Source: an uncultured Bacteroidales bacterium
Lineage (GTDB): Bacteria; Bacteroidota; Bacteroidia; Bacteroidales; GCA-2748055
Direction of reading: 5' to 3'
Assembly (NCBI GenBank): GCA_963771005.1
Contig: CAVYRO010000002.1
Coordinates: forward strand, 1,550,299-1,614,298
Length of the DNA: 64,000 bases
The position numbers were made by a program, and so were the translations under genes. Of this stretch, positions 32,278 to 61,694 are shown piece after piece. The notes under the pieces are model-generated. The model was not told where the DNA came from and searched no databases. It saw only the letters and a list, made by a program, of their open reading frames with translations. The stretch's first letter is position 1. Every line of letters starts with the position of its first letter.

Positions 32278-33198
32278 TTACTCGAACAGGATGGTACTGA
32301 AGTATCTTTCACCGGTATCCGGCAGCACAACAACGATAGTTTTACCAGCATTTTCCGGTTTTTCTGCCACGATAAGGGCTGCATGCATAGCCGCACCGCT
32401 GGAAATACCAACGAAAATACCCTCCTTCGTTGCAAGAGCCCTCGCAGTGGATATCGATTCCTCCTCATTTACCCGGATCACCTCGTCGTATGCTTTAGTA
32501 TTAAGCACATCGGGAATAAAACCTGCGCCGATGCCCTGGATCTTATGCGGCCCGGGATCACCACCCGAAAGAATTGGTGAGCCCGTAGGTTCAACTGCAT
32601 AGATCCTGATGCCGGGTTTCCTCTTTTTCAAAAGTTCAGATACACCGGTGATGGTACCACCCGTACCGATCCCGGCAACGAATATGTCCACTGCTCCATC
32701 TGTATCATTCCATATCTCCTCTGCCGTAGTCTCCTTGTGGATCCGGGGATTGGCCTCGTTCTTGAATTGCTGCGGTATAAAATGATCCCTATGCTGACCT
32801 GCCAGCTCGGTAGCTTTGGCTATGGACCCTTTCATTCCCTCGGAGGCGGGTGTAAGAACGATCTCGGCCCCGTACGCGGCCAGGATCTTGCGTCGCTCCA
32901 CACTCATGCTTTCGGGCATGGTCAGTATGAGCTTGTACCCTTTAGCAGCACTTACCATAGCCAGACCGATACCCGTATTGCCGCTTGTGGGTTCGATGAT
33001 CACCGTCCCGGGCTTGAGTTTTCCTGATTTTTCGGCCGCGACGATCATCGAGAGTGCGATCCTGTCTTTTACTGAGCCGGCCGGATTAAAGGATTCCAGT
33101 TTAGCAAGCACGGTTGCTGATCCGTTGCTGAGGTTGTTGATTTTTACAAGGGGTGTCCTCCCAATTGTTTCCGTAATATCCTTAAATATTTTTGACAT
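32278..33198 (-). CDS. cysK: cysteine synthase A (O-acetylserine sulfhydrylase)
   Basis: [11 protein letters not shown], the PLP-lysine motif [15 protein letters not shown] and [10 protein letters not shown]. Confidence 0.9.
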
Positions 33199-33514: not shown

Positions 33515-36419
33515 TTACTTTTTTCTCAGCCTCAGAGCATTCAGGATTACGGACACCGAACTGAAGCTCATTGCCGTGGCAGCGATAACCGGACTCAGCA
33601 AAAGTCCGAAAAACGGGTAAAGGATCCCTGCTGCAACAGGAACGCCGATGGAATTGTATATGAACGCGAAAAACAGGTTCTGCTTTATATTCTTCATCAC
33701 CTTAATGCTGAGATCTCTTGCCCGTACTATCCCGTTAAGATCTCCTTTAACGAGTGTGATCCCGGCGCTCTGCATGGCGATGTCGGACCCTGTTCCCATG
33801 GCAATGCCAATATTGGCCTGGGCAAGCGCCGGTGCATCATTGATCCCGTCTCCGGCCATGGCCACGATATGTCCCTGATCCTGCCATTCTTTAACCTTGT
33901 TGTATTTATCATCCGGCAGGCAGTCTGCTAGATACCCATCGAGGTTCAATTCAGTCGGCAACGGCTTTTGCAGTATACTCATTGTCACCGGTAAGCATAT
34001 AAACTTTCACGCCCATTTCCTGAAGCGCACTGATCGCCCCGGCTGAGGTCTTTTTGATGGTATCAGAAACGCTGACCATCCCTTCCACCCGTCTGCCGGC
34101 GACAAGAAACATCACCGTCTGGCCGGTCGATTGCCATTCTTCGGCAAGCTTTTCCTGGCTTTCGGAAAGAGAAGCCTTGAAATCATCGAGCAGGCGGAGA
34201 TTTCCAAGACCGATAGGCTCACCGTTGTACATGGCCTGCACGCCTTTGCCGGTAACTGATAAGAAATCCCGGACCTCGATAAGACCTGTTTTCTGTTCCT
34301 CTGCACCTTTTACGATGGCTTCCGCAACGGGATGATTGCTTTGCGCATCGATGGAAGCAGCGAGACGAAGAATGTCTTCATCCTGCAACTTCCCGAACGA
34401 TTTCCATGACTTCAATCGCGGTTTGCCTTCGGTAATCGTTCCGGTCTTATCGATGATCAGCAAATCCACCTTGTTCATCTCCTCGATGGTTCGGGCATCC
34501 TTCACCAGTATACCGGATTGTGCTCCCCGCCCTGTTCCTACCATTATCGACATAGGGGTAGCCAGTCCCAGTGCACAGGGACAGGCAATGATTAGTACAG
34601 ACACGGAATTGACAAACGCATAAACCAGGGCAGGCTCCGGCCCCCATATCGCCCATAGGGCAAAGGTTACTACAGCCACCGAAACCACGATTTGAACGAA
34701 ATATTTCGCCACCAGGTCGGCCAGTCTTTGGATAGGAGCCCTTGTCCGGCTGGCTTCATTCACCATTTCAATGATCCGTGCAAGCAGCGTATCACTGCCC
34801 ACTTTCCGGGCCTCCATTACGATGGAGGTATTCCCGTTGATGGTTCCCCCGGTTACGTCATCTCCTACCGATTTATCAGCCGGCACAGGCTCTCCTGTGA
34901 TCATACTTTCATCGACAGTAGCTTCACCCTCAAGGATCTTCCCGTCAACCGGGATCTTCTCACCGGGCCGGACTCTGAGACGGTCACCAACCACAACTTC
35001 TTCTAGAGGGATCTGTTCTTCATGGCCGTTACGAATGATCCGGGCCACCGGAGGTGCCAGGTTCAGAAGCGCCCGGATGGCTGAATTGGTTTTGCTGTGG
35101 GCTCGCAGCTCCATTACCTGGCCCATAAGAACCAGGGAAAGAATAACCGTCGACGCTTCAAAATACAAATGTACATTGCCGGCGGCATCCTTAAACTGCG
35201 CAGGAAACAAACCGGGAAAGATAAGGGCCAAAACGCTGAAAATAAATGCAGCACCTACACCGAGACTGATCAGGGTCCACATGTTTGGGGACCTTCTTCT
35301 GACAGAGCTGTAACCGCGTTTGAAAAACTGCCATCCCGAATAGAACACCACAGGGATGGACAAGAGAAATTCCAGCCAGCCCCATGCTCTTTCGGAAATA
35401 AAATTTTCGAGGTGAACTCCTTTGATCATACCAGACATAGCCACGAGAAAGACAGGTGCAGTAAAGATGAGAGCTACTTTGAATTTTCGCAGCATCTTTA
35501 TATAAGCCTTTTGTTCCTCATCGGTTTTCTGAACCTTTTCGGGAACCAGGTCCATACCGCATTTTGGGCAGGTACCGGGACCTTTTTGCCTGACCTCCGG
35601 ATGCATCGGACAGGTATAGATCAGGTTGCCGGCAGAACTCCTATTTTCCACTTTAAGGAGATCCATGCCGCATACCGGGCAGTCTCCCGGATGATCATAG
35701 GTTTTATCCCCTTCGCACCGCATCGGGCAATAATATTCTTCACCTGTCTGCCCGTTACCTGACTTTGCATGTTCTCCGTACCCCTGGCCATGCCCGTGAT
35801 GTTCCTGGTGATGAGAATGAGGATGTTCTTTATGACTATCCCGTTGCTCACCCTCCCTGACCAGGAACATGTTGCAAACCGGGCATCTCCCAGGTTCATC
35901 GTAGGTTTTGTCACCTTCACAATGCATAGGACAATAATACTTTTCACCGGAGTGTTCTATTTCCTTCTCTGGCTTTTCCACCTGATTGACATGCCCTTCC
36001 GTGTCAGCCGGATTATCCTCCGTTACTTTTACCAGGTGCATTCCACATACCGGACAATCACCGGGCTGGTCATAAATTTTGTCCCCTTCACAATGCATCG
36101 GGCAGATATACTCTCCGCCTGCTTGATGATCTTTCGTAAAGTCATGATTATCCTGCCGGGAAATGCTTTTCCCAATATGCTGTCCTTTGTGATCACCAGG
36201 ATCAAAACGGATGGAATAGCCGGTACGCTGAACGGCTGAAACCATACTTTTCCGGCTGACCTGATCCGGTTCATACCGGATCGAAGCGAGTTCACCGGTT
36301 AAGCTGACCGAAGCTTCCGCCACGCCTTCTATCGACAGAAGGGTTTCCTGTATTTTACGGGCGCAGGACTGACAACCCATGCCTTCCACAATGGCATTTT
36401 CAGAGATGTATTTTTTCAT
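33515..36419 (-). pseudogene. copA: copper-translocating P-type ATPase (P1B) with HMA plus four CPMH..PG.CP.CGM metal-binding repeats; one frameshift near 33963
   Basis: It has an N-terminal HMA domain ([11 protein letters not shown]) and four repeats (Y[IYT]CPM[HR](C/P)EGDK.YD.PG.CPVC[GN]M). P-type motifs are CPC ([12 protein letters not shown]), DKTGT and TGDN in the first ORF, and GDGINDAP in the second ORF. ..TAKAVAD* and [13 protein letters not shown].. join if one T is removed. Confidence 0.85.
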
Positions 36420-40488: not shown

Positions 40489-40794
40489 TTATATTTCCAA
40501 CGATAATTTCAAATGTCCACCTAGTCCTTCGTTTATTATTCTCATCAACGTTGATAATCGAATATCACTTGCATTGTTTTCGATGCGCGAAATATAATTT
40601 TTTGTCGTACCAACTTTCTCCGCAAGTTGTTTTTGAGTCATGTGTTGTTTTTTTCTAGCTTCCTGAATCAGTACCCCGATTTTAAAAGCTTCAAATTCCT
40701 GCTCGTATTTCTTACGTGTTTGTGTCCCTGGATTGCCATATTTATTATCAAGATGGTCATCCCATGAAGTCAAATTGTTATTTAGTTTTTCCAT
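40489..40794 (-). CDS. higA: XRE-family HTH antitoxin (HigA-like)
   Basis: MTQKQLAEKVGTTKNYISRIENN is an HTH_3 motif. It overlaps the upstream toxin gene by 17 nt. Confidence 0.7.
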   Translation of the reverse strand: MEKLNNNLTSWDDHLDNKYGNPGTQTRKKYEQEFEAFKIGVLIQEARKKQHMTQKQLAEKVGTTKNYISRIENNASDIRLSTLMRIINEGLGGHLKLSLEI

Positions 40795-41125
40795 CGAAGT
40801 ATTCTTTTTTTAACCGTTCTGCCTTATCAATCTCTTTTTTAGGTGTCTTTTGTGTCTTTTTTTGAAAGCCACTCAGAAGAATTACGAGGTGTCCTTCGTC
40901 AAAGCAACAAAATACCCTGTAAATATTACTCCCAACCTGAGTCCTTATTTCCCAAATTCCATCCGTGTTGGTCAGATGATCAAAATAAATTTTTGGTACA
41001 ATCCTTAAGGAACGAACCAAACCAATGGTCCAATCAATTCTATCTTGAACCTTTTTTGGCTGTGCATAATAAAAGTCCCAAAAGTGATTTTTATAAACGC
41101 TAATCGTCCGTTTAAAATCCTCCAA
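40778..41125 (-). CDS. higB: RelE/ParE-superfamily toxin (HigB / Gp49-like)
   Basis: WEIRTQVGSNIYRVFCCFDEGHLVILLSGFQKKTQKTPKKEIDKAERL is typical of the Gp49/HigB family. The gene order is toxin first. Confidence 0.7.
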   Translation of the reverse strand: MEDFKRTISVYKNHFWDFYYAQPKKVQDRIDWTIGLVRSLRIVPKIYFDHLTNTDGIWEIRTQVGSNIYRVFCCFDEGHLVILLSGFQKKTQKTPKKEIDKAERLKKEYFDGKTK

Positions 41126-41257: not shown

Positions 41258-42319
41258 CTACCGTCTGCCTGCTTCCCTCAACACAGCATTGAAATACATG
41301 GCAAATGACCGGTACAGGAAGTGGGTCCATTTTCCGAAGGGGACAATGATCAGTGCCCATTGGGCAAGGATAACCAGGTGTAGTATGTAAATCCAGGCAT
41401 GGTTGTTCAAAAGAGAAAAATCGATAAAAATCCTGACCACGACAGCCGATAGCCCCATCAACATCAGCCAGATCACGAAAAACCAGTCCGAAGGCCGGGA
41501 ATACCTGTTTACCTCCCTGTTTTTTCTTATCCTTGAAATGATAAAGTCCAAAGTGACCACGGAAACAATGATGCCTTCGGCATAACCCAATCTTATTATA
41601 AACCTGCTGCCCGTACCAAACCAATCCAGGGCCACGGTTGTAAAGAGCAGGGAAAGGTATCCGGCTACCAGCACCAGGTGTTTAAACCATCTGAAGGTGT
41701 TTTTTTCACAATCCAGGCTTCGTTTCTGCGTGAACATGTGCAGGAAAAGATCGCCTGCTCCTTTCAGGTAAGCTTTAAAAGGTATTTTAAATCCGGGTTT
41801 ACGCAACGTGAGATACCACATCCGGAAAAGATTGGGAAGAAGAACAAGTACAAATACTCCGGCTATTGCAAAAGCCTCGAATAGATGCCCATAGTGCAGG
41901 AGGCTTTCGATACGGAATTCCTGCAGGTAGCCAAAAAGCACCACCATGAATGCCACCAGGAGAAAGGCTGCAATCTGAAATGGTAATGAGCGGTACATCC
42001 AACCGGATAAACCCGTCCAATCGTACTTTGCGGTCAGCCATCTCCGGAGGGACATCATAAGTTCGCCCGGGTTGGCAGATTTCGGACATTGCTGGCTGCA
42101 TTCACCGCAATAATAGCAAAGCCAGGGCTTCAATGAGGAAGTGATTCCGTTCTCCAGGCCGAGTACACTGAAACGCACCATCTCTCGGGGAAACGAATCA
42201 TCCTCTGTGGACAAGGAGCAAACTGCAGTACAGTTACCGCAATTGTAACAGGCATTGAAATCGAATGCTCCGTATCTTCTCAGGTCTTTTGAAAAGCCAG
42301 GATTTATCTTCGTCATCAC
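41258..42319 (-). CDS. QmoC/HdrC-HdrE-like membrane subunit: two [4Fe-4S] motifs plus six TM helices with conserved His
   Basis: CYNCGNCTAVCS and CYYCGECSQQCP are CxxCxxCxxxC motifs. Six hydrophobic helices follow, containing His residues (HYGHLFEAF, FKHLVLV, ILHLVIL, WTHFLY). Confidence 0.6.
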   Translation of the reverse strand: MMTKINPGFSKDLRRYGAFDFNACYNCGNCTAVCSLSTEDDSFPREMVRFSVLGLENGITSSLKPWLCYYCGECSQQCPKSANPGELMMSLRRWLTAKYDWTGLSGWMYRSLPFQIAAFLLVAFMVVLFGYLQEFRIESLLHYGHLFEAFAIAGVFVLVLLPNLFRMWYLTLRKPGFKIPFKAYLKGAGDLFLHMFTQKRSLDCEKNTFRWFKHLVLVAGYLSLLFTTVALDWFGTGSRFIIRLGYAEGIIVSVVTLDFIISRIRKNREVNRYSRPSDWFFVIWLMLMGLSAVVVRIFIDFSLLNNHAWIYILHLVILAQWALIIVPFGKWTHFLYRSFAMYFNAVLREAGRR

Positions 42320-42594
42320 GCTTTGATTTTGTAGTAAAAATATTCGTCATCATCATCAATTTCTGCTGGTTCGACAAAACCGTATTTAAGCAATGACATC
42401 AGGTAAAACATCACATCGTAAGCGGGCATATCCAGTTTTTCAGCCAGTTGCGGAATGGTCATCTCCCCTTCTTTCATGGCATTCATAATGGATTTTTTAA
42501 TCCGGGTAAAAGTCTTAAGATTCTCCTTTACCCCAGGTGACACCTCACGCTTTTCTCTCAGATATTTTGCTGTTTTTCCTTTTTCGGCTTCCAT
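42316..42594 (-). CDS. small winged-helix-like protein with acidic tail
   Basis: 92 aa. MTIPQLAEKLDMPAYDVMFYLMSLLKYGFV is wHTH-like. Its start and stop overlap the neighbouring genes. Confidence 0.35.
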   Translation of the reverse strand: MEAEKGKTAKYLREKREVSPGVKENLKTFTRIKKSIMNAMKEGEMTIPQLAEKLDMPAYDVMFYLMSLLKYGFVEPAEIDDDDEYFYYKIKA

Positions 42595-42651
42595 AATATT
42601 TTAATATAGTTGTTCAGGTTCTGCAGGCTGTCTTCATACTGCCGGCAACGC

Positions 42652-44584
42652 TCAGTTTTTTGCCATCATATCAATCATGTTTTCAATCTCAGGATTTGAA
42701 TATGACGCGAGATTAATGGCATCTTCGGGACAAACAGGGAGGCACATTCCACAGCCTTTACAAACGGATGTGTTGATCATTGCTATATTCTTACCTTCAT
42801 CCTTTAGCTTGGAAATCACACCAAACGGACAGGCACCTGTACAGGCATCGCACCATGTACATTTATCTCTATCCACTTTGGCAACCACAGGTTCCATTTC
42901 CAACTGCCCTTTGCTGATGTACGACCATGATTTGGCGGCTGCAGAGAGCGCCGAGTTAACAGATTCCATCACATTTTTGGGCCCCTGGCAGGTTCCGGCG
43001 ATAGTGATCCCGTCGATAACTGTCTCCACCGGGCGGAGTTTCATGTGTATCTCATTGAAAAATTTATCGCGGCCCCTGGGAATTTTAAAAACCGAACCCA
43101 CTGAATTACCGGATCTCGGTACCATGCCGGTAACCAAGACGACCAGGTCAGCCGTCACCTCTATCTCTTTATGTCCTGTGAGAATATCGTTAACCCTTAC
43201 GATGGTTTCATCCCCTTCCCTGCTAACACGCGGAAGGTGCGTCTTCGTACGACTGCAGGTAAATATCCCCATTCCGGGAAGATTCCGTGTACAGAACCTC
43301 CTGTTTACCGTATGTCCTTATTCCGCGGTTAAAATGATAATTCTGAATATCACCGAACTTCTTCCTGGCATGAATTGCGGCATGGATGGTGGATGTGCAG
43401 CAATACCTGGAACAGTACTTATTTTCACCTTCCGGCTGACGGCTTCCGACACAATATATATAGACTATATTTTTTATATTTTTTCCCTGCCATACCAGAT
43501 TCTTATCATTTAATGCCACGAGACGCTTAAATTCAGGCAGGGTAAGAACATTGCCGATCTGCCGGTATCCAAACTCCCCTTCTTCCGGAGTATAGGGATC
43601 ATAACCGGTGGCAACGAGTACCGAACCGACATTGAGATGCATGGTTTCTTCCTTTTGAGACAGGTCAATATTTTCACAAACCTTCTCACATTCAGCGCAG
43701 CGGGTGCAATTCTCAATGTCGATAACCGGCAGGTGAGGAGATTCGCCAGGGTAATTATAGTAAATGGCTTTACGGGTGGTTCTATTAAAATTGAAGCTGT
43801 CTTTGACCTCAACAGGGCATCGTTCAATGGCTTTTTGCAGATCATCAGGATCACAATTTTCTTTAATATACCTGGGCCTTATGCTGACGGTCAGGTCAAA
43901 ATTTCCGATACTGCCGGACGTATTGACTACTTCGGCATTTGTGAGTATCTTAACGTTTTCACGTTGACTAAGCGTTTGGTACAAACGGGTAGCGAGGCTT
44001 TTTCCAGACTCATCGGAGATGAACAATACGTCCCACTGTGCGATCCTTCCACCGGTGAATGGTTCCCGTTCTACCAGGTAAACCTGGCAATTCATATTTG
44101 ACAGTTCAATGGCGGCACGCATGCCTGCCACCCCTCCGCCGATGACGGCAACAGCTTTTTTGGATGGGATTATTATGGGTTCAAGGGATTCGGCCAGCCT
44201 GACCCGGGCGATTGCGGCTTTGACTGTTTTGATGGCCTTTTCGGTTGCTCCCTCCTTATTGTCTGAATGCGCCCACGACACCTGCTCACGAATATTGGCA
44301 TGCACATAATTATACTTGTTCAACCCCCCTCTTTCAGTCACTGCCCTGAATGTCAAAAGATGAAGTTTGGGAGAACAGGATGCGACGATAATCCCGTCAA
44401 GGCCCTTTGTCCTGATATCTTCAACCATCTCCTTCTGATTGGAGTCGGCACAGGCAAACATGGTTGTTTTCGCAAGTTCGATATCCTCTTCTGAAGCAAC
44501 CGCTTCGCGCACCTTCTCCACATCCACATAATCAGATATATTGCCACCGCAATGACAGATATATACGCCTATCTTCTTTTTCAT
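42652..44584 (-). pseudogene. HdrA/QmoB-like FAD and FeS flavoprotein with C-terminal 2x[4Fe-4S] ferredoxin domain; frameshift in a G4/C4 run at 43267-43270
   Basis: The N-terminus is IGVYICHCGGNISDYVD and the FAD loop is VAVIGGGVAGMRAAIEL. ..ESSRNG|DIYLQ..* is continued in the next frame as GIFTCSRTKTHLPRVSREGDETIVRVNDILTG..ADLVVLVTGMVP. The end carries CTWCDACTGACP and CKGCGMCLPVCP. Confidence 0.7.
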
Positions 44585-45882
44585 GATCTCCGTGTTAGAT
44601 AACTTATCGTTTCAGAGGAAGCAGCTCCTGCGGAAAGTATTGAATCGGGAATATCCATTGGTCCTGATGCGGTTCCTGCCACGAAGACGCCCTGTATGCT
44701 TGTTTTTGCAGGGCTTCCGAGGATGTCTTCCTGTTGTATGAAATGCCAGGGATCCATTTTCATCACCTGACCGGGGAACATGGCTGCGGGTTCCTTGTTT
44801 GCCAACACACCTACAGACAGGATGACCATGTCATGTTCGGCTTCCTGTACTTTACCCTTATTGATATCCTCGTATCTCAATACCAGGTTTCCGTTTACCT
44901 TCCCGGTGATCTTCCCGATTTTCCCTTTCACAAATTCGACACCCATCCCTTTGGCTTGTTCATAAAATTCTTCGAAACCTTTGCCAAAGGATCTGATATT
45001 TAAGTAATAAATGGTTACATCAGCCATGGGGAGGGCGCCCATGATAAGCTGAGCCTGCTTAATGGAGTACATGCAGCAGATCTGGGAGCATACGGGGTTG
45101 CCAATTGTATCATCCCTGGAACCCGTGCACAATACATAAGCAATATTGTCAGGCATTTTACCGTCTCCGGGCCTCAGGATGGTGTTAAACGGCCTTGTTG
45201 GTGCCAGTTGCCGTTCCATCTGCATGGATGTGATGACGTTTTTGTAAAGGCCAAAACCATACCGGGGCATAAGCAAGGGGTCGAATAATTTAAACCCGGT
45301 AGCAATGACAACCGATTTCACTTTGACAAGATATTCCTCCGTTTCCTGGGTGAAATCGATACATCCCGCGGGGCAGGCTTTTTCGCAGGCTCCGCATAGT
45401 GTGCAGTTATCAATGTCGATGGCGGCCACCCGCGGGCTGGCTATACTGAAAGGAATATATGCCGCTTTCCGGCCTGTGAGCCCAAACTGGTACTGATCGG
45501 ATACACTAACCGGACAGGCTTCTTCGCAAAGCTGACATCCTGTACAATCTTCAACGACAACATACCTTGGCTGCCTGATTACGCTTGCTTCAAAATCATT
45601 CTCCCCAAGTTTTGCGACCTGTCCGACCTGGCTTCCGGTGAAAATAGTGATAGCCGGGTGCCTTGACATTTCAGAAACTTTGGGTGTGGTGATGCAAGCT
45701 GCGCAGTCAAGCGTAGGAAAAACCTTGCTTAACAGTATCATTTTACCGCCAACAGACAATTCCTTCTCAACTATAAGCACAGTATACCCGTTATTGGCCA
45801 GGTTTAAAGCAGCCTCACCACCGGCAATGCCTCCGCCAACGACCAGAACATCGAAAGAAGCATTCTTTATCTGTCCCTGCAT
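44581..45882 (-). CDS. HdrA/QmoA-like FAD-dependent oxidoreductase with ferredoxin insert
   Basis: VLVVGGGIAGGEAAL, FPTLDCAACITTPK, CTGCQLCEEACP, CTLCGACEKACP and FVAGTASGP. Confidence 0.7.
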   Translation of the reverse strand: MQGQIKNASFDVLVVGGGIAGGEAALNLANNGYTVLIVEKELSVGGKMILLSKVFPTLDCAACITTPKVSEMSRHPAITIFTGSQVGQVAKLGENDFEASVIRQPRYVVVEDCTGCQLCEEACPVSVSDQYQFGLTGRKAAYIPFSIASPRVAAIDIDNCTLCGACEKACPAGCIDFTQETEEYLVKVKSVVIATGFKLFDPLLMPRYGFGLYKNVITSMQMERQLAPTRPFNTILRPGDGKMPDNIAYVLCTGSRDDTIGNPVCSQICCMYSIKQAQLIMGALPMADVTIYYLNIRSFGKGFEEFYEQAKGMGVEFVKGKIGKITGKVNGNLVLRYEDINKGKVQEAEHDMVILSVGVLANKEPAAMFPGQVMKMDPWHFIQQEDILGSPAKTSIQGVFVAGTASGPMDIPDSILSAGAASSETISYLTRRS

Positions 45883-45884
45883 AA

Positions 45885-46286
45885 TTATGTAATTGAATTA
45901 GTAACCAAATATTCATTAAACGATCTAACATGTCTTACAAACGCTTCGCTGCATACCGAACATAAAGCAGCCATCTTCAGCCGGGCGGGATCGAGGTTCT
46001 TTTCTTTCATCATCTCCTGGGTACGCCTGACAAGTTCCCCGGTCTTTGCCGTGCAGCTCTCGCCGTAGGGACAATCACTTCCGTCGGCGGCGATAAACAC
46101 TCCGTCGAAACCCTGCTCGTATGCATGCAGGATCCACCGGGGCTTCACTCCGCTTGAGCAGGGAACGGTAATCGTGTATACTGTCGGAGGATAATGCAAT
46201 TTGAGTAATCCCGCCATGTCGATGGCGGGATCAGAGATCTTCTCAGTGGAAAAGACAAGTATCCTGGCACTCTTTTTTGCTTCCAA
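45885..46286 (-). CDS. MvhD/FlpD-like (methyl-viologen-reducing hydrogenase delta subunit family) protein
   Basis: ILVFSTE......TVPCSSGVKPRWILHAYEQGFDGVFIAADGSDCPY is the hallmark MvhD pattern. Confidence 0.7.
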   Translation of the reverse strand: MEAKKSARILVFSTEKISDPAIDMAGLLKLHYPPTVYTITVPCSSGVKPRWILHAYEQGFDGVFIAADGSDCPYGESCTAKTGELVRRTQEMMKEKNLDPARLKMAALCSVCSEAFVRHVRSFNEYLVTNSIT

Positions 46287-46294
46287 AGTCCTGT

Positions 46295-46543
46295 TTATTT
46301 TTTCATCATAACCTTGAAATAGCCGCTCTCTTCAATCGTGCCAAGGTATTCGTAACCCTTCTTGTTGCACCATTTCGGGATATCCACTTTGGTACCTTCA
46401 TCGGCTGACAGGACCTCCATAATTTCTCCTGTATTGATTGTGCCGATAGCTTTCTTTGCTTCCAAAAGCGGTCCGGGACATGCTGTGCCCCTGGCGTCGA
46501 CACTTTTGGTAATGGTTAGATTTTTTAATTCTTCCGTTGTCAT
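46295..46543 (-). CDS. tusA: TusA/SirA-family sulfur carrier
   Basis: DARGTACPGPLLEAKKAI is the CPxP active-site motif. The protein is 82 aa. Confidence 0.8.
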   Translation of the reverse strand: MTTEELKNLTITKSVDARGTACPGPLLEAKKAIGTINTGEIMEVLSADEGTKVDIPKWCNKKGYEYLGTIEESGYFKVMMKK

Positions 46544-46586
46544 AACTTTAAATTTTTATGATTTGTACTTACTTTATGCGGGCCGG

Positions 46587-47165
46587 TCAAATAAATAACT
46601 GGGCTCTGCTTTCCCCGGCATCAATTACAAAAGTCGCGGCTCCGGCAAACCGCAGATGAGGATAATCGATCAGTTCCTCCTTTTTGAAGCCCATCAGGTT
46701 CATCGACATCTCACATACCGTGATCTCGATACCCAGCCCGGCGGCCTGTGTGAACATCTCGTCAAGGCAGAGCACACCTTGTTTTTTCATTAAGGATTTG
46801 ATCATAACCGGGCCCATTCCTGCCATGTTGAGCTTTGAAAGTTTCAACTTGTTCCTTCCGTTGGGCAGCATCATACCGAACATCTTCGACATAATATTTT
46901 TCCCTCCGGCTTTCTTAACCGGATCGCGCAATGCTGAAAGCGACCAGAAAGAAAAGAACAATTTAACTTCCGTATCCATAGCGGCTGCAGCCAGGGCGAT
47001 GATCATGGCGGCAAGGATCCTGTCCATATCGCCTGAAACGATTGCAATCGATAACTGATCTTTATTCCGGTTTTCCAGTCCGGCCATACGGCTTTTCAGT
47101 TGATCGACCTGTGCCTCCAACTGCTCTACCTGTTTTTCCAAAGCCAGTTCGAAAATATTTTCCAC
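46587..47165 (-). CDS. DsrE/DsrF/DrsH-like family protein with N-terminal coiled coil
   Basis: LSIAIVSGDMDRILAAMIIALAAAAMDTEVKLFFSFWSL...ITVCEMSMNLMG matches the DsrE2/DrsE_2-type pattern I recall. Confidence 0.6.
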   Translation of the reverse strand: MENIFELALEKQVEQLEAQVDQLKSRMAGLENRNKDQLSIAIVSGDMDRILAAMIIALAAAAMDTEVKLFFSFWSLSALRDPVKKAGGKNIMSKMFGMMLPNGRNKLKLSKLNMAGMGPVMIKSLMKKQGVLCLDEMFTQAAGLGIEITVCEMSMNLMGFKKEELIDYPHLRFAGAATFVIDAGESRAQLFI

Positions 47166-47214
47166 TTTGATTGAGGTTTTGAAGCCAGGGCAAATCGCCG
47201 GCTGGCTATAAATA

Positions 47215-47583
47215 CTAATAATTGACTACGTTGGTGGCGGACAGAACTTCTGTCACAACGGTACCGGCAGCAATAAGCTGGGAGCCTTCCACGAGCTGTT
47301 CATTCCCAATATTCCTTTCCTTAATACAGGGGGAACAAAGAAGCAGTTTGCCCCCAAGTTCCACATAGGTATTGAGTAACTCTTTCAATGGTAGAAGACC
47401 CTTGGCTTTCACGTTTTCTGCCTCACCTTTTTTTGCGATCAGTACGGCATCGGACTGAAGGATCATTACTACTTCAACATCCATTGACTGGGCAGCAGTT
47501 GCCAGCACGAAAGGAAGAGTGGCTTTTTCCGGGCTGTCAGGGCCCACTGTACTGATGATTACAATTTTTTCATTTGTTTCCAT
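47215..47583 (-). CDS. DsrE-family sulfur-relay protein
   Basis: 122 aa. IVIISTVGPDSPEKATLPFVLA...LLLCSPCIKERNI. Confidence 0.65.
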   Translation of the reverse strand: METNEKIVIISTVGPDSPEKATLPFVLATAAQSMDVEVVMILQSDAVLIAKKGEAENVKAKGLLPLKELLNTYVELGGKLLLCSPCIKERNIGNEQLVEGSQLIAAGTVVTEVLSATNVVNY

Positions 47584-47591: not shown

Positions 47592-47609
47592 TTGTTAAAT
47601 TTTTAACAA
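47592..47609. promoter_or_regulatory. palindromic operator candidate TTGTTAAA-TT-TTTAACAA, 9 nt upstream of the DsrE start
   Basis: Perfect 8-bp arms were read directly. Confidence 0.4.
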
Positions 47610-47668: not shown

Positions 47669-47684
47669 TGTGATATATATCACA
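47669..47684. promoter_or_regulatory. perfect CRP/FNR-type box TGTGA-N6-TCACA in the divergent intergenic region
   Basis: tgtgatatatatcaca lies 14 nt upstream of the Crp/Fnr gene ATG and about 86-100 nt upstream of the DsrE operon start. Confidence 0.55.
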
Positions 47685-47697: not shown

Positions 47698-48375
47698 ATG
47701 AATAATATATGTATCGATTGTGATTTCAAGTCGAAAGCAACAATTAATCTGGATGAGAATGAGAAGGAATTGTTATCCTGCAACCATGTTATGCTGAGTT
47801 TCCGGAAAGGAGAAACGGTGATCAGACAGGGGCATTTTTCATCCAATATTACCTATTTAAGAAAAGGATTGGCCAAGATCCACATGAAAGGTCCATATTA
47901 CGAACAGATCATAAAGATTGTCAAAGCACCACGATATCTTGGATTGCCTACCACTTTCGGCGACAAGGTCAACCAATATTCCGTAACCGTAATCGAGGAT
48001 GCAGAAATATGTTTTATCGATAATTCAACTTTCCGCGAATTATTGAGTAGCAATATTAATTTCACCCATGAGATCATTTTCAATCTTTGCCGTTACGAAC
48101 TTGATTCATTCCACAAGTGTGCCAACCGGACGCAGAAACAGACGCGCGGTAACATCGCGGATGTCCTGATTGATTTTGCCGATAATTTTTATAATTCGGA
48201 TGTATTTAATCTTCCTCTTAACAGGGACGAGATCGGCAACCTTGTCGACACCAGCCGGGAGAGTGTGAGCCGCGTGTTAACCGAGTTTAATATAGACGGC
48301 ATCATTCGTCTCACCGGTAAAAAAGTTGAGATCCTGAACAAAAGGTCCCTGCAATTGATAAGCGCCAACGGCTAG
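47698..48375 (+). CDS. Crp/Fnr-family transcriptional regulator with N-terminal Cys cluster
   Basis: A cNMP-binding-like beta-roll is followed by the C-terminal HTH (RDEIGNLVDTSRESVSRVLTEF). N-terminal Cys residues lie in CIDCDF...SC. Confidence 0.8.
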   Translation: MNNICIDCDFKSKATINLDENEKELLSCNHVMLSFRKGETVIRQGHFSSNITYLRKGLAKIHMKGPYYEQIIKIVKAPRYLGLPTTFGDKVNQYSVTVIEDAEICFIDNSTFRELLSSNINFTHEIIFNLCRYELDSFHKCANRTQKQTRGNIADVLIDFADNFYNSDVFNLPLNRDEIGNLVDTSRESVSRVLTEFNIDGIIRLTGKKVEILNKRSLQLISANG

Positions 48376-48832: not shown

Positions 48833-49315
48833 ATGCGGAAAATCCTTTTTACATTTCTTTTCCTTATCACTGGAAGTATTTTTCTTTCGGCCCAGGAGAT
48901 TGAAAGAATTGACGCCGCACAGCTTCAGAAACTGACTGAGGTCAAAGATAACAGGCTGCACGTCGTGAATTTCTGGGCCACCTGGTGCAGTCCTTGCGTA
49001 AAGGAAATTCCGGGATTTAAAAAAGCATCGGAAGCATACCCGGCCGACAAGGTTGATTTTCTTTTTGTCAGTCTGGATTTTCCTTCCACTGCCGAAAAGA
49101 ACCTGGTTCCTTTCATAAAGGATCATAATTTGAATTCACGCGTAGTGCTCATGACCGGTCAGAATGCAGATTCCTGGATCCGGATGATCGACAGGGACTG
49201 GCAGGGAGATATACCGGCTACTCTGATTTACCGCACCTCGGACGACCTAAGGGTTTTCCATGCCGGGGAACTCAACTATGATGAGCTGAAAAACATGATC
49301 AATAATCATTTATAA
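48833..49315 (+). CDS. TlpA-family thiol:disulfide oxidoreductase (thioredoxin fold)
   Basis: Signal peptide, then VVNFWATWCSPCVKEIP (the WCxxC motif). Confidence 0.8.
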   Translation: MRKILFTFLFLITGSIFLSAQEIERIDAAQLQKLTEVKDNRLHVVNFWATWCSPCVKEIPGFKKASEAYPADKVDFLFVSLDFPSTAEKNLVPFIKDHNLNSRVVLMTGQNADSWIRMIDRDWQGDIPATLIYRTSDDLRVFHAGELNYDELKNMINNHL

Positions 49316-49328
49316 AAACCACAATACC

Positions 49329-49925
49329 ATGAAAAAGTTACCGATTCTTATTATGCTGGCACTCATCGCAGTGTCACTGAATGCGCAGTATTCTGTTGGT
49401 GATAAGGTCCGCGATTTCAATCTCAAAGGCACCGACGGCAAAATGCATTCCATGAGTGAATTTAAGGACGCCAGGGGGTACATTATTACCTTCACCTGTA
49501 ACACATGTCCCTATGCAAAAAAATACGAAGACCGGATCATTTCCCTCAACAAGGATTTCGCCCCCATTGGATTCCCTGTTATTGCGATCAATTCCAATGA
49601 TGTAGCCCAGCAGCCCATGAATTCCATGAGCGAGATGAAGAAAAGGGCAAAGGACAAAGGTTATGAATTTCCGTACCTCCGCGATGACGACCAGTCTGTC
49701 GCGAAACAGTTCGGCGCTGTCCGCACCCCGGAGATCTATCTCGTCCTGAAAAAAGGAAATGATTTTTATGTAGCCTATACCGGAGCTATTGACGATAATG
49801 TCGATATGCCTGAGCAGGCAGACAAACATTTCGTTTCGCTGGCCATTCAGGATGTTGAGAAGGGAAAGAAGGTGGAAATTCCTGAGACCCGTGCTGTGGG
49901 ATGCTCGATTAAATGGAAGGAATAA
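49329..49925 (+). CDS. thioredoxin-fold (redoxin/AhpC-TSA-like) protein
   Basis: Signal peptide, then ITFTCNTCPYAKKYEDR (a CxxC motif) and VRTPEIYLV. Confidence 0.65.
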   Translation: MKKLPILIMLALIAVSLNAQYSVGDKVRDFNLKGTDGKMHSMSEFKDARGYIITFTCNTCPYAKKYEDRIISLNKDFAPIGFPVIAINSNDVAQQPMNSMSEMKKRAKDKGYEFPYLRDDDQSVAKQFGAVRTPEIYLVLKKGNDFYVAYTGAIDDNVDMPEQADKHFVSLAIQDVEKGKKVEIPETRAVGCSIKWKE

Positions 49926-53341: not shown

Positions 53342-56300
53342 TTGAACGAACAGATTCAGTATTTTGAAATGGGTCGTTTAAGGCAGGTGGTTCGTGTTAA
53401 GGGCAGCCCTACAGGTGATGATATGATCATGCCGGTGGAATATGATGTATTTGGAAGACAAAGCAAAAACTATTTACCTGTTTCGTATACCTATATTAAC
53501 CCGGGAAGTTATCTGAATAATTATACTGCCGCTCTGGATAACCTTTACAATGGAGGATTCAATATACCGGATGCGGAGGGTTACTACTATAGTGAAACTC
53601 AGTTTGACGGATCTCCCCTGAACCGGGTTGTCGCCCAGTCATCCCCCGGGGCCTCCTGGTCAATGTCAACGGGACACACCGTCGAATATTCGTATTCCAC
53701 GAACCAGGCAAGCACGATCCGTTTATGGTCCATGGACGGGAGTACGGCTACTAGTAACGGATGTTACACCGAAGGTGAATTATACGTAAACACGGTTACC
53801 GACGAGAATGGGAACCCGTCCCGGGTCTATATTGATAAAAAAGGAAGATTGATCGCTAAAGATGACACTCTCTCTGTCAACTATAGAACCTATTACGTCT
53901 ACGACTATTACGGAAGCCTGCGTTATATATTCCCCCCAAAAATGGCAAAGGATTTTGGTACCAGCGGGACCCTCCAATATACTCCTTCCACAACGCTGGT
54001 GGTTGGACTGGCTTTCTACTATCAGTACGACGATATGGGACGGGTTGTAATCGCCCAGGAACCTGGAGCCGGACAGAAATACCTGGTTTATGACCACAGG
54101 GACCGGCTTGTGGCCACTCAAAACGAAGAGGAGAGAAATGACTCAAAATGGTATTGCATAAAGTATGATGCATTGAACCGGCCGGTGATCGAGGGAACTA
54201 TAAATTCCAGTTATAGCCGTGAATCTTTACAGGCTACAGTCGATGCATATAATTTCAGTGAAGATTTTGAGACACTGAATCCTTCACAGGTTAATACATC
54301 GCCAGACTACGGCTACAATGATATTTCCTTTCCCATGGAAATAGAGCCATTAAAGATCTACTATTATGATGATTATTATGATTTTGGAACAAATTACAAT
54401 TACAAGACCAATGAGATGGCCGCTAGCGGCGATAAGTCGTACAAGCTAAAAAATGCGTTGACTGCCACCCGAACAAAAGTTCTTGACGGATCTCTTCCGG
54501 TAACCTGGCTGATCTCGGTTTCTTACTTTGATAATTATGGACGGTTGATTCAAAATATCTCCAACAATCACCTGGGGGGGTATGATATTGTCACCTCGGA
54601 ATACAAGAACACCATCAATAATAACATCACCAGGATCAAGCAGGAACATGGGATAAGCGGAACCACGGTGGATCATACCCTCATGTACCGCTACACGTAT
54701 GATCACACCGGGGGCCGGTTACTGGAATCCTATCTGACCTTTGACCAGGAGGATGAGATCATGCTCTCGGCCTTAAAATACAACAAACTGGGTCAGGTTG
54801 ACGAGAAATACCTGCATGGAGACCTGTCCACCAACAAGGCCATCCAGAAACTCGATTATATTTACAACATACGGGGTTGGCTGAAAAAGATCAATGATGC
54901 CTCGCTGAGCACTCCTGGAGATGTTTTTGGTATGGAACTGCTCTATGATGATTATATCTCAACGCTCGGTTCAAGTGGTGACAAGCAGTACAACGGGAAT
55001 ATTACCGCCATGAAATGGAACACCACTTTGCAAGGCGCCGGACTGGAAGGGTATGAATTCCGGTACGATGGTCTGAACCGGCTAACTTCGGCTAATTACG
55101 GTTACGGGACAAGTTTATCAAATTCCGGCAACCGGTACGGAGTATGGGGTATCACTTATGATGAAAACGGAAATATCCTTACCCTGAAACGAAACTCTGC
55201 AGGATCGCTTATGGATGATCTCACCTATCAGTACGACTCCAGCCTGCCAAACCGTCTTAAATCCGTTGAAGACGACGGGGATGTTAATACGGGATTCAAA
55301 AACCTTTACTCGTCGACAACGGAATATACTTACGACGAAAATGGAAGTATGATACGTGACTATAATAAAGTCAGTGGTTCATCCTATGCCTTGATCTCCT
55401 ATAACCATCACTTTAACCTTCCGGTAAGCGTAACGGTGGACACTAAAACGTTGAGTTATTCCTACGATGCCGGTGGCAAAAAACTAAGATTTAACAACGG
55501 GGATAGTCAGAATGTCGATTATATGAATAACTTTGTTTATGAAGATGGTTCTTTGTCATATATATTAACTTCTGAAGGCAGGATCGTCTATAACTCCGGC
55601 TCGCTCTCCTGGCAGTATTTTCTGAAAGATCACCTGGGCAATGTCAGGGTGGTAATCAATGAAAACCAGGATATCGTTCAGGTGACCGATTATTACCCCT
55701 TTGGTCTTTCCCGGCCGGTTATCGGTGATGGCACCCAGAAATACCTCTACAACGGGAAAGAAATTCAGGAATATGCCGATTGGTACGACTATGGTGCCAG
55801 GATGTATGACCCGGCGCTGGGGAGGTGGCATGTTGCAGATCCGTTGGCGATTAATAGACATAACCTTTCATCTTATAATTATTGTCGCAACAATCCAATT
55901 TTATTTATTGATCCTTTTGGGCTTTCAGACACCACTTATTCACAAGGAGATATAACTAAAAAAAATTATAATTTGCCTGGAGTCGTTCATAAATATGAAT
56001 ATGCATGGCTTAATCGATTTCATGGTGCTGGTGGTCAAGGAAATCCATTTGATGAGGAATTCTGGAGACATTTAGAAGAAGAATGGAGAAGAAATGGACA
56101 AAAAGCTGGTAAAAAAGCGGACAGGGAAAGAGAAGCTGCCATACTTATGCAGAACTGGCAAGATTATAAACACAATTATAATCAGCTTTGGGATATGATC
56201 AATCAAATTCAGAACAATACTGCAAATGTTGCCACAAACGGAGGGGGTGGATATACAATTGATATGCAAAGAATAGCCGAATCACCTGATGGAACTGTAA

Positions 56301-56695
56301 GTTCATTTACAGCATATGGCCCGACTCCTTTACAACCTGTTAGTGGTTATATATTAGAGCCTGGTGGGCCATCAACAACAACTAGAGGTCAAGACAAGAG
56401 AATTCCTGCTGGGACTTACAATGTAGACCCTCTTAGTAGCACAAGTCATCCTAATGTTTACAGAGTTTCAAATGGGCAAGTACCTGCTGACAGGTATATT
56501 TTAATACATACGGGAAATTATCCTTCAAATACTTTAGGTTGTCTTTTACCGGGAAGCTCGTACAGTATGGTAAATGGTAATTATGCAGTATGGAATAGTG
56601 GAACGACCCTTAATTCCTTGCGTTCTTTACTTGGTGGTAATAGTGCAACATTAAATATTTCTGACATTCCGATTTTTAATTTTAATAACTGGTAA
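53342..56695 (+). CDS. Rhs/YD-repeat toxin (DUF6443-type) lacking its normal N-terminus; C-terminal YkuD/L,D-transpeptidase-like (DUF5675-like) domain
   Basis: IQYFEMGRLRQV...PVEYDVFGRQSKNYLP is a DUF6443-type start motif. Many YD repeats follow (YxYDxxGRL/I). The RHS core end is YYPFGL...[22 protein letters not shown]...NNPILFIDPFGL at 55910-55924. The 256-aa CT contains IPAGTYNV...RYILIHTGNYPSNTLGCLLPG. An in-frame stop lies 21 codons upstream of the TTG at 53342. Confidence 0.85.
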   Translation: MNEQIQYFEMGRLRQVVRVKGSPTGDDMIMPVEYDVFGRQSKNYLPVSYTYINPGSYLNNYTAALDNLYNGGFNIPDAEGYYYSETQFDGSPLNRVVAQSSPGASWSMSTGHTVEYSYSTNQASTIRLWSMDGSTATSNGCYTEGELYVNTVTDENGNPSRVYIDKKGRLIAKDDTLSVNYRTYYVYDYYGSLRYIFPPKMAKDFGTSGTLQYTPSTTLVVGLAFYYQYDDMGRVVIAQEPGAGQKYLVYDHRDRLVATQNEEERNDSKWYCIKYDALNRPVIEGTINSSYSRESLQATVDAYNFSEDFETLNPSQVNTSPDYGYNDISFPMEIEPLKIYYYDDYYDFGTNYNYKTNEMAASGDKSYKLKNALTATRTKVLDGSLPVTWLISVSYFDNYGRLIQNISNNHLGGYDIVTSEYKNTINNNITRIKQEHGISGTTVDHTLMYRYTYDHTGGRLLESYLTFDQEDEIMLSALKYNKLGQVDEKYLHGDLSTNKAIQKLDYIYNIRGWLKKINDASLSTPGDVFGMELLYDDYISTLGSSGDKQYNGNITAMKWNTTLQGAGLEGYEFRYDGLNRLTSANYGYGTSLSNSGNRYGVWGITYDENGNILTLKRNSAGSLMDDLTYQYDSSLPNRLKSVEDDGDVNTGFKNLYSSTTEYTYDENGSMIRDYNKVSGSSYALISYNHHFNLPVSVTVDTKTLSYSYDAGGKKLRFNNGDSQNVDYMNNFVYEDGSLSYILTSEGRIVYNSGSLSWQYFLKDHLGNVRVVINENQDIVQVTDYYPFGLSRPVIGDGTQKYLYNGKEIQEYADWYDYGARMYDPALGRWHVADPLAINRHNLSSYNYCRNNPILFIDPFGLSDTTYSQGDITKKNYNLPGVVHKYEYAWLNRFHGAGGQGNPFDEEFWRHLEEEWRRNGQKAGKKADREREAAILMQNWQDYKHNYNQLWDMINQIQNNTANVATNGGGGYTIDMQRIAESPDGTVSSFTAYGPTPLQPVSGYILEPGGPSTTTRGQDKRIPAGTYNVDPLSSTSHPNVYRVSNGQVPADRYILIHTGNYPSNTLGCLLPGSSYSMVNGNYAVWNSGTTLNSLRSLLGGNSATLNISDIPIFNFNNW

Positions 56696-56706
56696 ACTGA
56701 ATTAAA

Positions 56707-57497: not shown

Positions 57498-57501
57498 TAC
57501 A

Positions 57502-57528
57502 GAAAAGCCCGAGCAATCGGGCTTTTTC
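57502..57528. terminator. bidirectional Rho-independent terminator
   Basis: gaaaagcccgagcaatcgggcttttt has a 6-bp GC stem flanked by an A-run and a T-run. It sits between convergent genes. Confidence 0.6.
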
Positions 57529-57529
57529 T

Positions 57530-57800
57530 TTATCTATTCTTCCATAACTCAGGGTCTCGGTTTGTATGCCATACGGCTGAAACAATTATGGTTTTATTTT
57601 TTTCGTCAATTGTAAAGTGAACCATAAATGGGAACAGGTTTAAAACAGCAGTTCTCACGCTGTTGTAACGGACATTTGAAGCTTTTGGGTTTAGCCTGAT
57701 AAAATGGACTTTTTCATGGACTTCTGCAGTAAATCTTTTACCAAGTCCTTTTTGTTGTTTGTTATACCACAGGGCAGCTTCCCGAATATCTTCTTTTACA
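57530..57800 (-). pseudogene. ParE/RelE-like toxin gene, 5' end displaced by the IS66 remnant; no cognate antitoxin
   Basis: ..TVKEDIREAALWYNKQQKGLGKRFTAEVHEKVHFIRLNPKASNVRYNSVRTAVLNLFPFMVHFTIDEKNKTIIVSAVWHTNRDP is a ParE pattern. Codons upstream of T41 are encoded by IS sequence. Confidence 0.5.
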
Positions 57801-58169: not shown

Positions 58170-58184
58170 ATGTAGCTTTTTCGT

Positions 58185-61688: not shown

Positions 61689-61694
61689 CATTCT

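Follow-up and report, generated by a model that had tools for sequence, protein, structure and literature searches.

A membrane-anchored HdrA-type redox complex encoded with TusA and DsrE sulfur carriers in Bacteroidales and other bacteria

What might a Qmo-like electron transfer module connect to when the genes beside it encode the sulfur carriers TusA and DsrE? The question is raised by an operon on the minus strand (positions 41258-47583) of a 64,000-nucleotide stretch of DNA from an uncultured Bacteroidales bacterium (contig CAVYRO010000002.1 of assembly GCA_963771005.1, positions 1,550,299 to 1,614,298), which we refer to as the window. The operon encodes a membrane-anchored HdrA-type redox complex, made up of MvhD, the paralogues HdrA1 and HdrA2, a winged-helix protein and a QmoC-like membrane subunit, together with TusA, a DsrE2B-like carrier and a DsrE3-like carrier. 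We lean slightly towards the view that this complex is an HdrA-type junction at which electrons are exchanged between menaquinone/menaquinol, ferredoxin and sulfane sulfur held on TusA and DsrE.

Genes were assigned from open reading frame (ORF) calls together with Pfam and NCBIfam profiles, as follows (aa, amino acids; AF2, AlphaFold2):

47215-47583, minus strand: DsrE-family carrier, DsrE3-like, 122 aa (PF02635, E-value 3e-16)
46587-47165, minus strand: DsrE2B-like carrier, 192 aa (PF13686, E-value 2e-43, 148 bits)
46295-46543, minus strand: TusA carrier, 82 aa (PF01206, E-value 3e-22)
45885-46286, minus strand: MvhD/FlpD-like [2Fe-2S] adaptor, 133 aa (PF02662, E-value 1e-26)
44581-45882, minus strand: HdrA1 (QmoA-like), 433 aa (HdrA models, PDB HdrA chains)
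42652-44584, minus strand: HdrA2 (QmoB-like), 643 aa when repaired, present as two ORFs, 43223-44584 and 42652-43272 (HdrA models)
42316-42594, minus strand: winged-helix protein, 92 aa (weak HTH_5/TrmB matches, AF2 fold)
41258-42319, minus strand: QmoC-like membrane subunit, 352-353 aa (NCBIfam qmoC, transmembrane prediction)

These eight genes, which the earlier note on this DNA had called from the letters and the ORF translations, form a real operon at these positions. Matches in Pfam, NCBIfam and PDB bear out all of its gene calls, and the families that it had named for checking (PF02662, PF01206, PF02635, PF13686 and the Qmo/Hdr models) were matched, with qmoC and HdrA below their equivalog cut-offs. 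From dsrE to the QmoC-like gene, the gaps between ORF coordinates are 49, 43, 8, 2, -4, 57 and -4 nucleotides, so the genes are tightly packed or overlapping. A scan for promoters and terminators was uninformative (18 promoter-like sites where 14.7 would be expected, and 6 terminator-like ones where 8.6 would be); thus, the operon call is based on gene spacing and synteny.

Synteny is also what ties the redox genes to the carriers. When one genome for each GTDB species was scanned for the pattern, at least ~600 stretches matched, and 80 of these loci were analysed. Their ORFs were called and labelled with the proteins of the window, and all 1533 ORFs were clustered. Fifty-five loci are informative, each with at least 5.5 kb upstream of QmoC, and the order TusA-MvhD-HdrA-HdrA-(winged helix)-QmoC is found in 47 of them, with TusA adjoining MvhD in every one of the 47. 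DsrE2 or DsrE is present in 43 of these 47 TusA-type loci (DsrE itself in only 14), and two HdrA genes occur in 49/55 informative loci. Given that the identical gene order is found again in dozens of species, the arrangement exceeds what chance would produce. The earlier note had proposed that a Qmo-like complex exchanges quinone electrons with sulfur on TusA and DsrE. The link to the carriers, rather than to adenosine 5'-phosphosulfate (APS) reductase, stands (TusA in 47/55, DsrE2 or DsrE in 43/47), and that hypothesis is plausible and considerably strengthened by synteny. The part in need of correction is the simple wire from quinol to persulfide, as a third partner is implied (ferredoxin, or NAD(P)H where HdrA1 carries a GltD-like insert), which would make the complex a possible bifurcating or confurcating junction.

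The same note had found the cluster unexpected in a Bacteroidota-like background, and here the survey points the other way: the cluster is common rather than odd in this phylum. There are more than 4300 QmoC-like homologues, and the best 120 listed are at least 62% identical; few of these 120 are named, and all of the named ones are Bacteroidota (Lentimicrobium, Prolixibacteraceae, Mangrovibacterium, Rikenellaceae). In the neighbourhood survey that the note had called for, the core cluster occurs in six phyla (Bacteroidota, Chloroflexota (Anaerolineales), Planctomycetota, Verrucomicrobiota, Acidobacteriota and Krumholzibacteriota). Outside Bacteroidota, QmoC is about 40% identical to that of the window, in the following loci:

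Anaerolineales: L057, L060, L062, L065 and L073-L075
Planctomycetota: L071 and L080
Verrucomicrobiota: L077
Acidobacteriota: L082
Krumholzibacteriota: L063

One cultured carrier of the cluster was seen, Ancylomarina longa T3-2 (L017). In eight loci (L054, L056, L058, L063, L068-L070 and L072, one of them labelled Krumholzibacteriia), the soluble subunits are 57-78% identical to those of the window and QmoC only 37-41%, which suggests that the membrane subunit may have been exchanged between otherwise similar clusters.

The carriers themselves keep their active-site residues. TusA scores 78.9 bits (gathering cut-off of PF01206, 28.6) and has its active-site Cys22 in a C-P-G-P sequence, a CPxP motif; D16, C22, P23 and P25 are kept in at least 90% of 44 cluster-linked sequences. 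Cys83 of DsrE, in a C-S-P-C motif, is invariant in 18 cluster-linked DsrE sequences, and the closest solved relative is DsrE3A of S. solfataricus (3mc3, E-value 2e-7). The DsrE2-like protein keeps Cys151 in at least 90% of 40 sequences. Its solved relatives, 3pnx and 2qs7, are of the soluble DsrE2B type, and its score against the NCBIfam DsrE2 equivalog, which represents the membrane-bound DsrE2A type, is 61.8 bits (cut-off 210). In place of the two N-terminal transmembrane helices of DsrE2A, it has an amphipathic, heptad-like helix some 30 aa long at its N-terminus. This corresponds to the coiled coil of the earlier note, and the extension is kept across a long subtype of DsrE2 and absent from a short one. 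A link to selenium, prompted by a match to the YedF model, was rejected (35.7 bits against a cut-off of 110).

The cytoplasmic redox subunits resemble those of methanogens. MvhD scores 93.5 bits against PF02662 (cut-off 22.3) and also matches the C-terminal MvhD part of the HdrA2 model and the VhuD model; its Cys43 and Cys72 are kept in at least 90% of sequences. HdrA1 and HdrA2 both carry the GxGxxG motif for flavin adenine dinucleotide (FAD), and both match NCBIfam HdrA models below the equivalog cut-off. HdrA1 matches positions 138-561 of the HdrA2 model (E-values of about 1e-136 to 9e-136), and its residues 11-423 align with positions 153-566 of HdrA chains in the PDB (1e-103). It has an FAD core of the thioredoxin reductase type and a complete inserted 2x[4Fe-4S] ferredoxin domain (Fer4 motifs at 110-175), without the N- and C-terminal domains of HdrA. 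HdrA2 (1e-117 against the HdrA models), once repaired, is colinear over residues 3-637 with methanogen HdrA (8rvu and 5odc, 1e-127 to 1e-130) and keeps the N-terminal Cys domain, the YCSRxCC motif, the FAD core and the C-terminal 2x[4Fe-4S] domain; it retains neither the DCxxC motif, which is replaced, nor the first motif of the inserted ferredoxin domain, which is left half-degenerate. With the N-terminal, core, inserted and C-terminal features of HdrA split over two paralogues in this way, the pair resembles an asymmetric counterpart of the HdrA homodimer. Canonical QmoB bears a fused MvhD-like C-terminal domain, so MvhD and HdrA2 together would correspond to it. The designation of HdrA2 as QmoB-like in the earlier note was sound as to HdrA-like identity, and incomplete in that MvhD would be needed to match QmoB.

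Does the split in HdrA2 mean that the operon is dead? One extra base at about position 43237 separates the two ORFs. In a tblastn search with an intact orthologue of 645 aa (from L001), its residues 1-449 fall in one frame (77% identity) and residues 438-641 in the next (74%). The repaired protein of 643 aa, with the C-terminal 2x[4Fe-4S] domain present, agrees with the length of about 650 aa anticipated from the sequence alone. If the base is real, the cluster could be a decaying pseudogene cluster with no current function in this genome, and in favour of this the site of the extra base is not a long homopolymer. However, both halves retain high identity to the intact orthologue with no further lesion, the remaining operon genes are all intact, and a lesion of the same type lies 7 kb from the cluster, so we consider decay quite unlikely. 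The second lesion affects a heavy-metal P-type ATPase (33515-36419, minus strand), which is split into ORFs 33951-36419 and 33515-33988, the latter with the GDGINDAP motif, by an apparent one-base insertion at about 33957. Given this second one-base split close by, assembly indels in the 1.9-Mb metagenomic contig are the likeliest cause of both. Programmed frameshifting in HdrA2 was rejected because there is no slippery site, the orthologues are all in frame and the second one-base split is nearby.

The membrane subunit has two CxxCxxCxxxC motifs and six predicted hydrophobic helices. Among 54 diverse relatives, with identities as low as 22%, the eight Cys of the motifs and His214 never vary, His314 and His333 are kept in at least 96% and His145 in 61%; in the Bacteroidota family, no variation is seen at His145, His194, His214 or His333. 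The soluble head matches HdrC chains in the PDB (E-value 2e-12), and the AF2 model of the membrane domain has a predicted local distance difference test score (pLDDT) of 80-95. The protein combines an HdrC-like 2x[4Fe-4S] domain with a NarI/HdrE-like domain of six predicted helices, which is predicted to bind haem b. The QmoC architecture described in the earlier note, two iron-sulfur motifs joined to six His-bearing helices, was thus found in every part.

[quoted passage not shown] The membrane subunit aligns with the NCBIfam qmoC model from end to end (positions 5-360 of 360, E-value 8e-39), several orthologues are annotated as QmoC by the Joint Genome Institute (JGI), and two HdrA-like genes lie ahead of the membrane subunit, as in qmoABC. 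However, the score of 134.1 bits is far under the equivalog cut-off of 300, MvhD is unfused, a winged-helix subunit is present, and TusA is adjacent in 47 of the 55 informative loci. Across the 80 loci, Apr, Sat and Dsr families do not recur within 10 kb, and none is encoded in the window. In addition, the hosts are mostly labelled Bacteroidales or Anaerolineales, groups that to our knowledge are not known as sulfate reducers. We regard this reading as highly improbable.

The gene between HdrA2 and QmoC encodes a protein without Cys whose Pfam matches (HTH_5 and TrmB) are weak. Its AF2 model (pLDDT 90) has an ArsR/SmtB-like fold, which bears out the winged helix expected for this protein of 92 aa, and the Foldseek matches are generic ArsR/SmtB and MarR proteins; a DsrD- or DsrC-like identity was dropped, as no such specific match was obtained. 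In the window, its stop overlaps the QmoC start, and in most TusA-type loci the gene stands free between HdrA2 and QmoC. In eight related loci, the domain is fused to the C-terminus of HdrA2 (hmmsearch E-values 1e-22 to 1e-27), from which we suspect that it serves as a subunit or docking domain. It is thus probably part of the complex rather than a free regulator.

Variants of the cluster that swap modules indicate where the carriers may dock. A sister variant in Bacteroidales has the order HdrA-QmoC-HdrA-MvhD followed by MvhG, MvhA and a maturation protease, and is without TusA or DsrE. Its loci are distributed as follows:

Hydrogenase genes present: L040, L045-L047 and L051 (L047 ends after MvhA, without the protease)
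Core and protease family shared: L050

A gene for a Rex repressor lies nearby in L040, L043, L046, L050 and L051. The sister variant is a putative H2:menaquinone/ferredoxin complex, which may itself be undescribed. Because it holds an Mvh-type [NiFe] hydrogenase instead of TusA and DsrE, the sulfur carriers sit in the position of a substrate module. In a second kind of variation, HdrA1 is about 920 aa long in L022, L033-L036, L038, L079 and L082, with inserted Fer4_20 and Pyr_redox_2 domains that form a GltD/NfnB-like NAD(P)H module. Thus, two parts of the system are exchanged among loci: the partner module, which is either hydrogenase or TusA/DsrE, and the HdrA1 insert, which is either of the ferredoxin type or of the NAD(P)H type. 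Among more distant QmoC-like proteins, P0124 and P0142 have a C-terminal fusion to an HdrD-like module (additional HdrC-like and CCG domains), so some members of the wider family bear a disulfide-reductase site on the same chain.

These variants bear on the possibility of a general oxidoreductase between menaquinone and ferredoxin (or NAD(P)H) that balances redox, like Rnf or EtfABCX. TusA and DsrE would then only provide sulfur for the maturation or repair of its many Fe-S clusters, or modulate it as sensors of redox state or persulfide. HdrA modules are known hubs of electron bifurcation, the cluster has no catalytic site for sulfur chemistry, and the GltD-like NAD(P)H variants already have two partners without sulfur. 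On the other hand, a bifurcating HdrA junction needs three partners, and the sister variant has a hydrogenase exactly where TusA and DsrE are absent. Up to three carriers, accompanied in some loci by YeeE importers, Psr and rhodaneses, would be excessive for cofactor maturation, and the active-site Cys of the carriers is conserved. We therefore think redox balancing of this kind unlikely.

The neighbours of the cluster in other genomes include several families of sulfur metabolism, distributed as follows:

Anaerolineales: an ArsR-type gene before the cluster in four loci (L057 and L073-L075)
Anaerolineales: DsrE-TusA-YeeE/YedE (PF04143, E-value 9e-76) and LysR after the cluster in most loci
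Bacteroidales L014 and L031: a PsrABC-like reductase, two half-YedE genes and a rhodanese after QmoC (confirmed by Pfam in L031)
L035, L056 and L069: a double rhodanese upstream

Many of the names of the source metagenome-assembled genomes (MAGs) and samples indicate anoxic or sulfidic habitats. Taken together, the conserved synteny, the conserved Cys of the carriers and the sulfur-related neighbours strengthen the tie between the redox module and TusA/DsrE.

In which direction, and by what chemistry, might sulfur then be processed? In a sulfur-oxidising reading like that of the sHdr system, sulfane sulfur bound to TusA and DsrE would be oxidised to sulfite, with electrons passing to menaquinone through the Qmo-like module. 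The set of DsrE3-like, DsrE2B-like and TusA carriers is that found beside shdr genes in Sulfolobales and bacteria (PMC11094781; structures 3mc3 and 2qs7), and HdrC-like and HdrB-like (CCG) genes adjoin the cluster in five loci. However, neither the operon nor the window encodes HdrB or another CCG protein, a second HdrC or a lipoate-binding protein, and the anoxic or sulfidic habitats suggested by the MAG and sample names do not favour oxidation. In both loci examined, the Bacteroidales HdrCB pair sits in a separate island (L083, 5682-11873; L084, 2034-11845), and so the pair is not counted as part of the system. We consider oxidation of the sHdr type very unlikely.

The HdrCB pair is itself highly conserved in Bacteroidales, with more than 2700 homologues, the best 120 of which are at least 79% identical to the query; none of these best 120 matches to the HdrB-like neighbour lies on the contig of the window. 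The L084 island comprises HdrCB, DUF134, NifX-like and MinD-type Fe-S ATPases, a protein of the metallo-beta-lactamase fold and a flavoprotein with a rhodanese domain that resembles CoA-disulfide/persulfide reductases; L083 shows only part of this set. Each of the DUF134, NifX-like and MinD-type families is present in 9-11 loci at no more than 10 kb from the Qmo-like cluster.

Regulation may be linked to redox conditions as well. Three elements lie upstream of dsrE:

47698-48375, plus strand: Crp/Fnr-family regulator, 225 aa (Pfam cNMP_binding, HTH_Crp_2 and Crp)
47669-47684, no strand assigned: perfect CRP-type palindrome TGTGATATATATCACA, TGTGA-N6-TCACA, an inverted repeat in the sequence
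47593-47608, no strand assigned: second, degenerate palindrome TGTTAAATTTTTAACA, 10-25 nucleotides upstream of the dsrE start codon

The regulator has weak NCBIfam matches to CRP, FnrL and Fnr. Four of its Cys (C5, C8, about C28 and C105) are conserved in 17 orthologues and recall, by analogy, Fe-S sensing of the FNR type. Divergent Crp-family genes lie upstream of the cluster in 27/55 loci with enough upstream DNA. The divergent region between dsrE and crp is 114 bp long, and a TGTGA-N6-TCACA box with at most one mismatch is present in 17 of 22 orthologous intergenic regions between Crp and the cluster. Half-degenerate TGTGAA/TTAACA boxes resembling TGTTAAATTTTTAACA occur in five related intergenic regions, so we infer that this second palindrome may be a functional box. 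This dedicated regulator of the Crp/Fnr type would control the operon. Just beyond the regulator gene lie two consecutive genes for thioredoxin-fold (AhpC-TSA/Redoxin) proteins (48833-49925, plus strand), whose hydrophobic N-termini suggest, by eye, that the products are secreted; the pair is not conserved beside the cluster elsewhere.

How could such a complex work as a junction of menaquinone, ferredoxin and sulfane sulfur, the reading we favour? By homology to the solved Mvh-Hdr complexes, three branches can be proposed. In the first, the flavin would be connected, by way of HdrA2's C-terminal ferredoxin domain and the [4Fe-4S] clusters of QmoC, to the membrane haems and menaquinone, with the membrane domain taking the place of HdrB. 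In the second, the inserted ferredoxin domain of HdrA1 may be the port for a low-potential carrier, which would be ferredoxin here and NAD(P)H in the GltD/NfnB-like variants. In the third, the N-terminal domain of HdrA2 and MvhD may be the port for a third partner, here TusA and DsrE, on which sulfane sulfur would be held as a Cys-persulfide (or thiosulfonate).

We weakly prefer the reductive direction, in which H2S would be formed by reduction of sulfane sulfur taken up from polysulfide, S0 or thiosulfate. The electrons would come jointly from menaquinol and reduced ferredoxin (confurcation), and the reaction could serve as an electron sink, as respiration or for detoxification under anoxia. 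This preference is drawn from the anoxic or sulfidic MAG and sample names, the FNR-like regulator and the Psr and YeeE neighbours. The S0/HS- couple, at about -270 mV, lies close to halfway between menaquinone (-74 mV) and ferredoxin (about -450 mV), so confurcation and bifurcation would both operate near equilibrium. The reverse alternative, sulfide-driven bifurcation to menaquinone and ferredoxin, would thus be about equally feasible thermodynamically. Fe-S chemistry on persulfides has a precedent, offered here as a lead only, in the [2Fe-2S] ferredoxins that reduce protein persulfides during Fe-S cluster assembly. Thiosulfonate derived from tetrathionate or thiosulfate may be an alternative substrate, as for DsrE3A and TusA in Metallosphaera (PMC11094781).

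Several points weigh against this proposal. Neither the operon nor the window encodes a site of the CCG/HdrB type or any other that is recognised as acting on S-S bonds or persulfides, and because TusA and DsrE have no redox cofactor, the step from electrons to sulfur is drawn from gene adjacency. Menaquinol alone cannot reduce a persulfide, so the proposal requires confurcation. The six best Foldseek matches of the QmoC-like subunit in the PDB are all NarI chains, and not significant (E-values of at least 0.14); the binding of haem and FAD is a prediction. Lastly, HdrA2 is frameshifted in this assembly; a genuine extra base could mean that this strain has an inactive operon.

A bolder form of the proposal is that the cluster represents a new class of enzyme: a membrane-bound, HdrA-based bifurcating or confurcating complex whose mid-potential substrate is sulfane sulfur or sulfide on TusA/DsrE, coupled to menaquinone and ferredoxin (or NAD(P)H), with persulfide chemistry at an Fe-S site that does without HdrB or a CCG domain. 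We offer this as a tentative possibility, with the odds against it. If true, it would be a new mode of sulfur respiration or of sulfide-driven ferredoxin reduction, with wide occurrence across anaerobic Bacteroidota, Anaerolineales, Planctomycetota, Acidobacteriota and further groups. If the junction reading is right, many fermentative anaerobes that abound in sediments, digesters and sulfidic springs would own a dedicated, energy-linked route for intracellular sulfane sulfur that is missed by the standard marker genes dsr, apr, psr, sqr and sox, which would alter inferences about sulfur cycling and H2S from metagenomes. The HdrA scaffold for bifurcation would be extended to a membrane quinone partner and a protein-persulfide partner, raising for enzymology the question of how an S-S bond is reduced or formed without a CCG domain. 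An annotation of QmoC or Qmo in such genomes should not be taken as a sign of sulfate reduction. The cultured Ancylomarina longa T3-2 gives experimental access to the system.

The rest of the window provides no further sulfur genes of the kinds looked for. Pfam scans of the flanking and other large ORFs in the window found no apr, sat, dsr, CCG-domain (PF02754) or lipoate-binding gene, and tblastn of the window with HdrB, HdrC, Psr, YeeE, rhodanese and Mvh queries returned only the ferredoxin motifs of the cluster itself. The absence of aprAB, sat, dsrAB/C, hdrB/C and lipoate-binding genes reported earlier is thus borne out by these searches, and genes for Psr, YeeE, rhodanese and hydrogenase are likewise missing from the 64 kb. 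Immediately downstream of QmoC, a gene for a Gp49/DUF891 (HigB-like) toxin overlaps one for an HTH_3 antitoxin (40489-41125, minus strand), and this pair is not kept in related loci. A PALP-family enzyme of 306 aa (32278-33198, minus strand), from a Pfam family that includes cysteine synthases, lies about 8 kb off the cluster, with no link established. On the plus strand at 53342-63393, a 1117-aa DUF6443/DUF5675 protein is followed by small ORFs, including one with an Ntox37 toxin domain; the guanine-cytosine content falls to 35-37% in parts of this region, which looks like a cassette of polymorphic toxin and immunity genes.

How, then, does the cluster compare with known systems? With QmoABC it shares two HdrA-like flavoproteins, an MvhD-type module and a membrane subunit in which an HdrC-like part joins six His-bearing helices and which aligns with qmoC over its full length. 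In contrast to QmoABC, it has a separate gene for MvhD (HdrA2 ending with 2x[4Fe-4S], where QmoB has the MvhD-like part as its C-terminal domain), a winged-helix subunit, a linkage to TusA, DsrE2 and DsrE, and a Crp/Fnr regulator, with no linkage to aprBA or sat in the window or within 10 kb in the 80 loci. Given the score below the qmoC cut-off, the unfused MvhD, the extra winged-helix subunit and the lack of apr linkage, the cluster is not canonical QmoABC. It may belong to the 'type II' Qmo proteins, which occur in organisms with or without Dsr/Apr and whose function was left open (Neukirchen et al. 2023, PMC10504309).

The complex is as close to the Mvh/Hdr complexes of methanogens as it is to Qmo. 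As in MvhADG-HdrABC (5odc, 8rvu), MvhD is present, 635 residues of HdrA2 align colinearly with HdrA, HdrA1 corresponds to the FAD core and inserted ferredoxin domain, and the N-terminal domain of QmoC is HdrC-like; the sister variant even retains MvhG and MvhA. Unlike in that system, HdrB (CCG) is lacking, HdrC is fused to a quinone-interacting membrane domain, HdrA is present as two unequal paralogues that are each without some of the clusters, and sulfur carriers are found in the position of the hydrogenase.

The likeness to the sHdr system studied by the Dahl laboratory (PMC11094781) lies in TusA (CPxP), DsrE3-like and DsrE2B-like proteins with conserved active-site Cys beside an Hdr-type complex; in that system, sulfur reaches sHdr as thiosulfonate or persulfide on DsrE3A and TusA (PMC11094781). 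However, neither the operon nor the window encodes sHdrB1, sHdrB2, sHdrC1, sHdrC2 or LbpA, the redox module is of a membrane-bound, Qmo-like kind, and the hosts are mostly MAGs from anoxic or sulfidic samples rather than known sulfur-oxidising lithotrophs. Without HdrB and LbpA, the system is neither Hdr nor sHdr. Similarly, TusA, DsrE and YeeE/YedE are contiguous with the Qmo-like genes in Anaerolineales, as in YeeE/YeeD (TsuAB) thiosulfate uptake and in the YTD clusters (YedE-TusA-DsrE) of sulfur disproportionators, whereas the window has no YeeE/YedE and YTD clusters have no HdrA or QmoC redox module. The earlier note had not recognised the locus as a characterised system, and we found no description of a TusA/DsrE-linked cluster in the full-text literature searched, a coverage outside which many subscription papers fall. 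The novel part is thus the TusA/DsrE-linked arrangement, in a complex that would work like the known Qmo and Mvh/Hdr systems.

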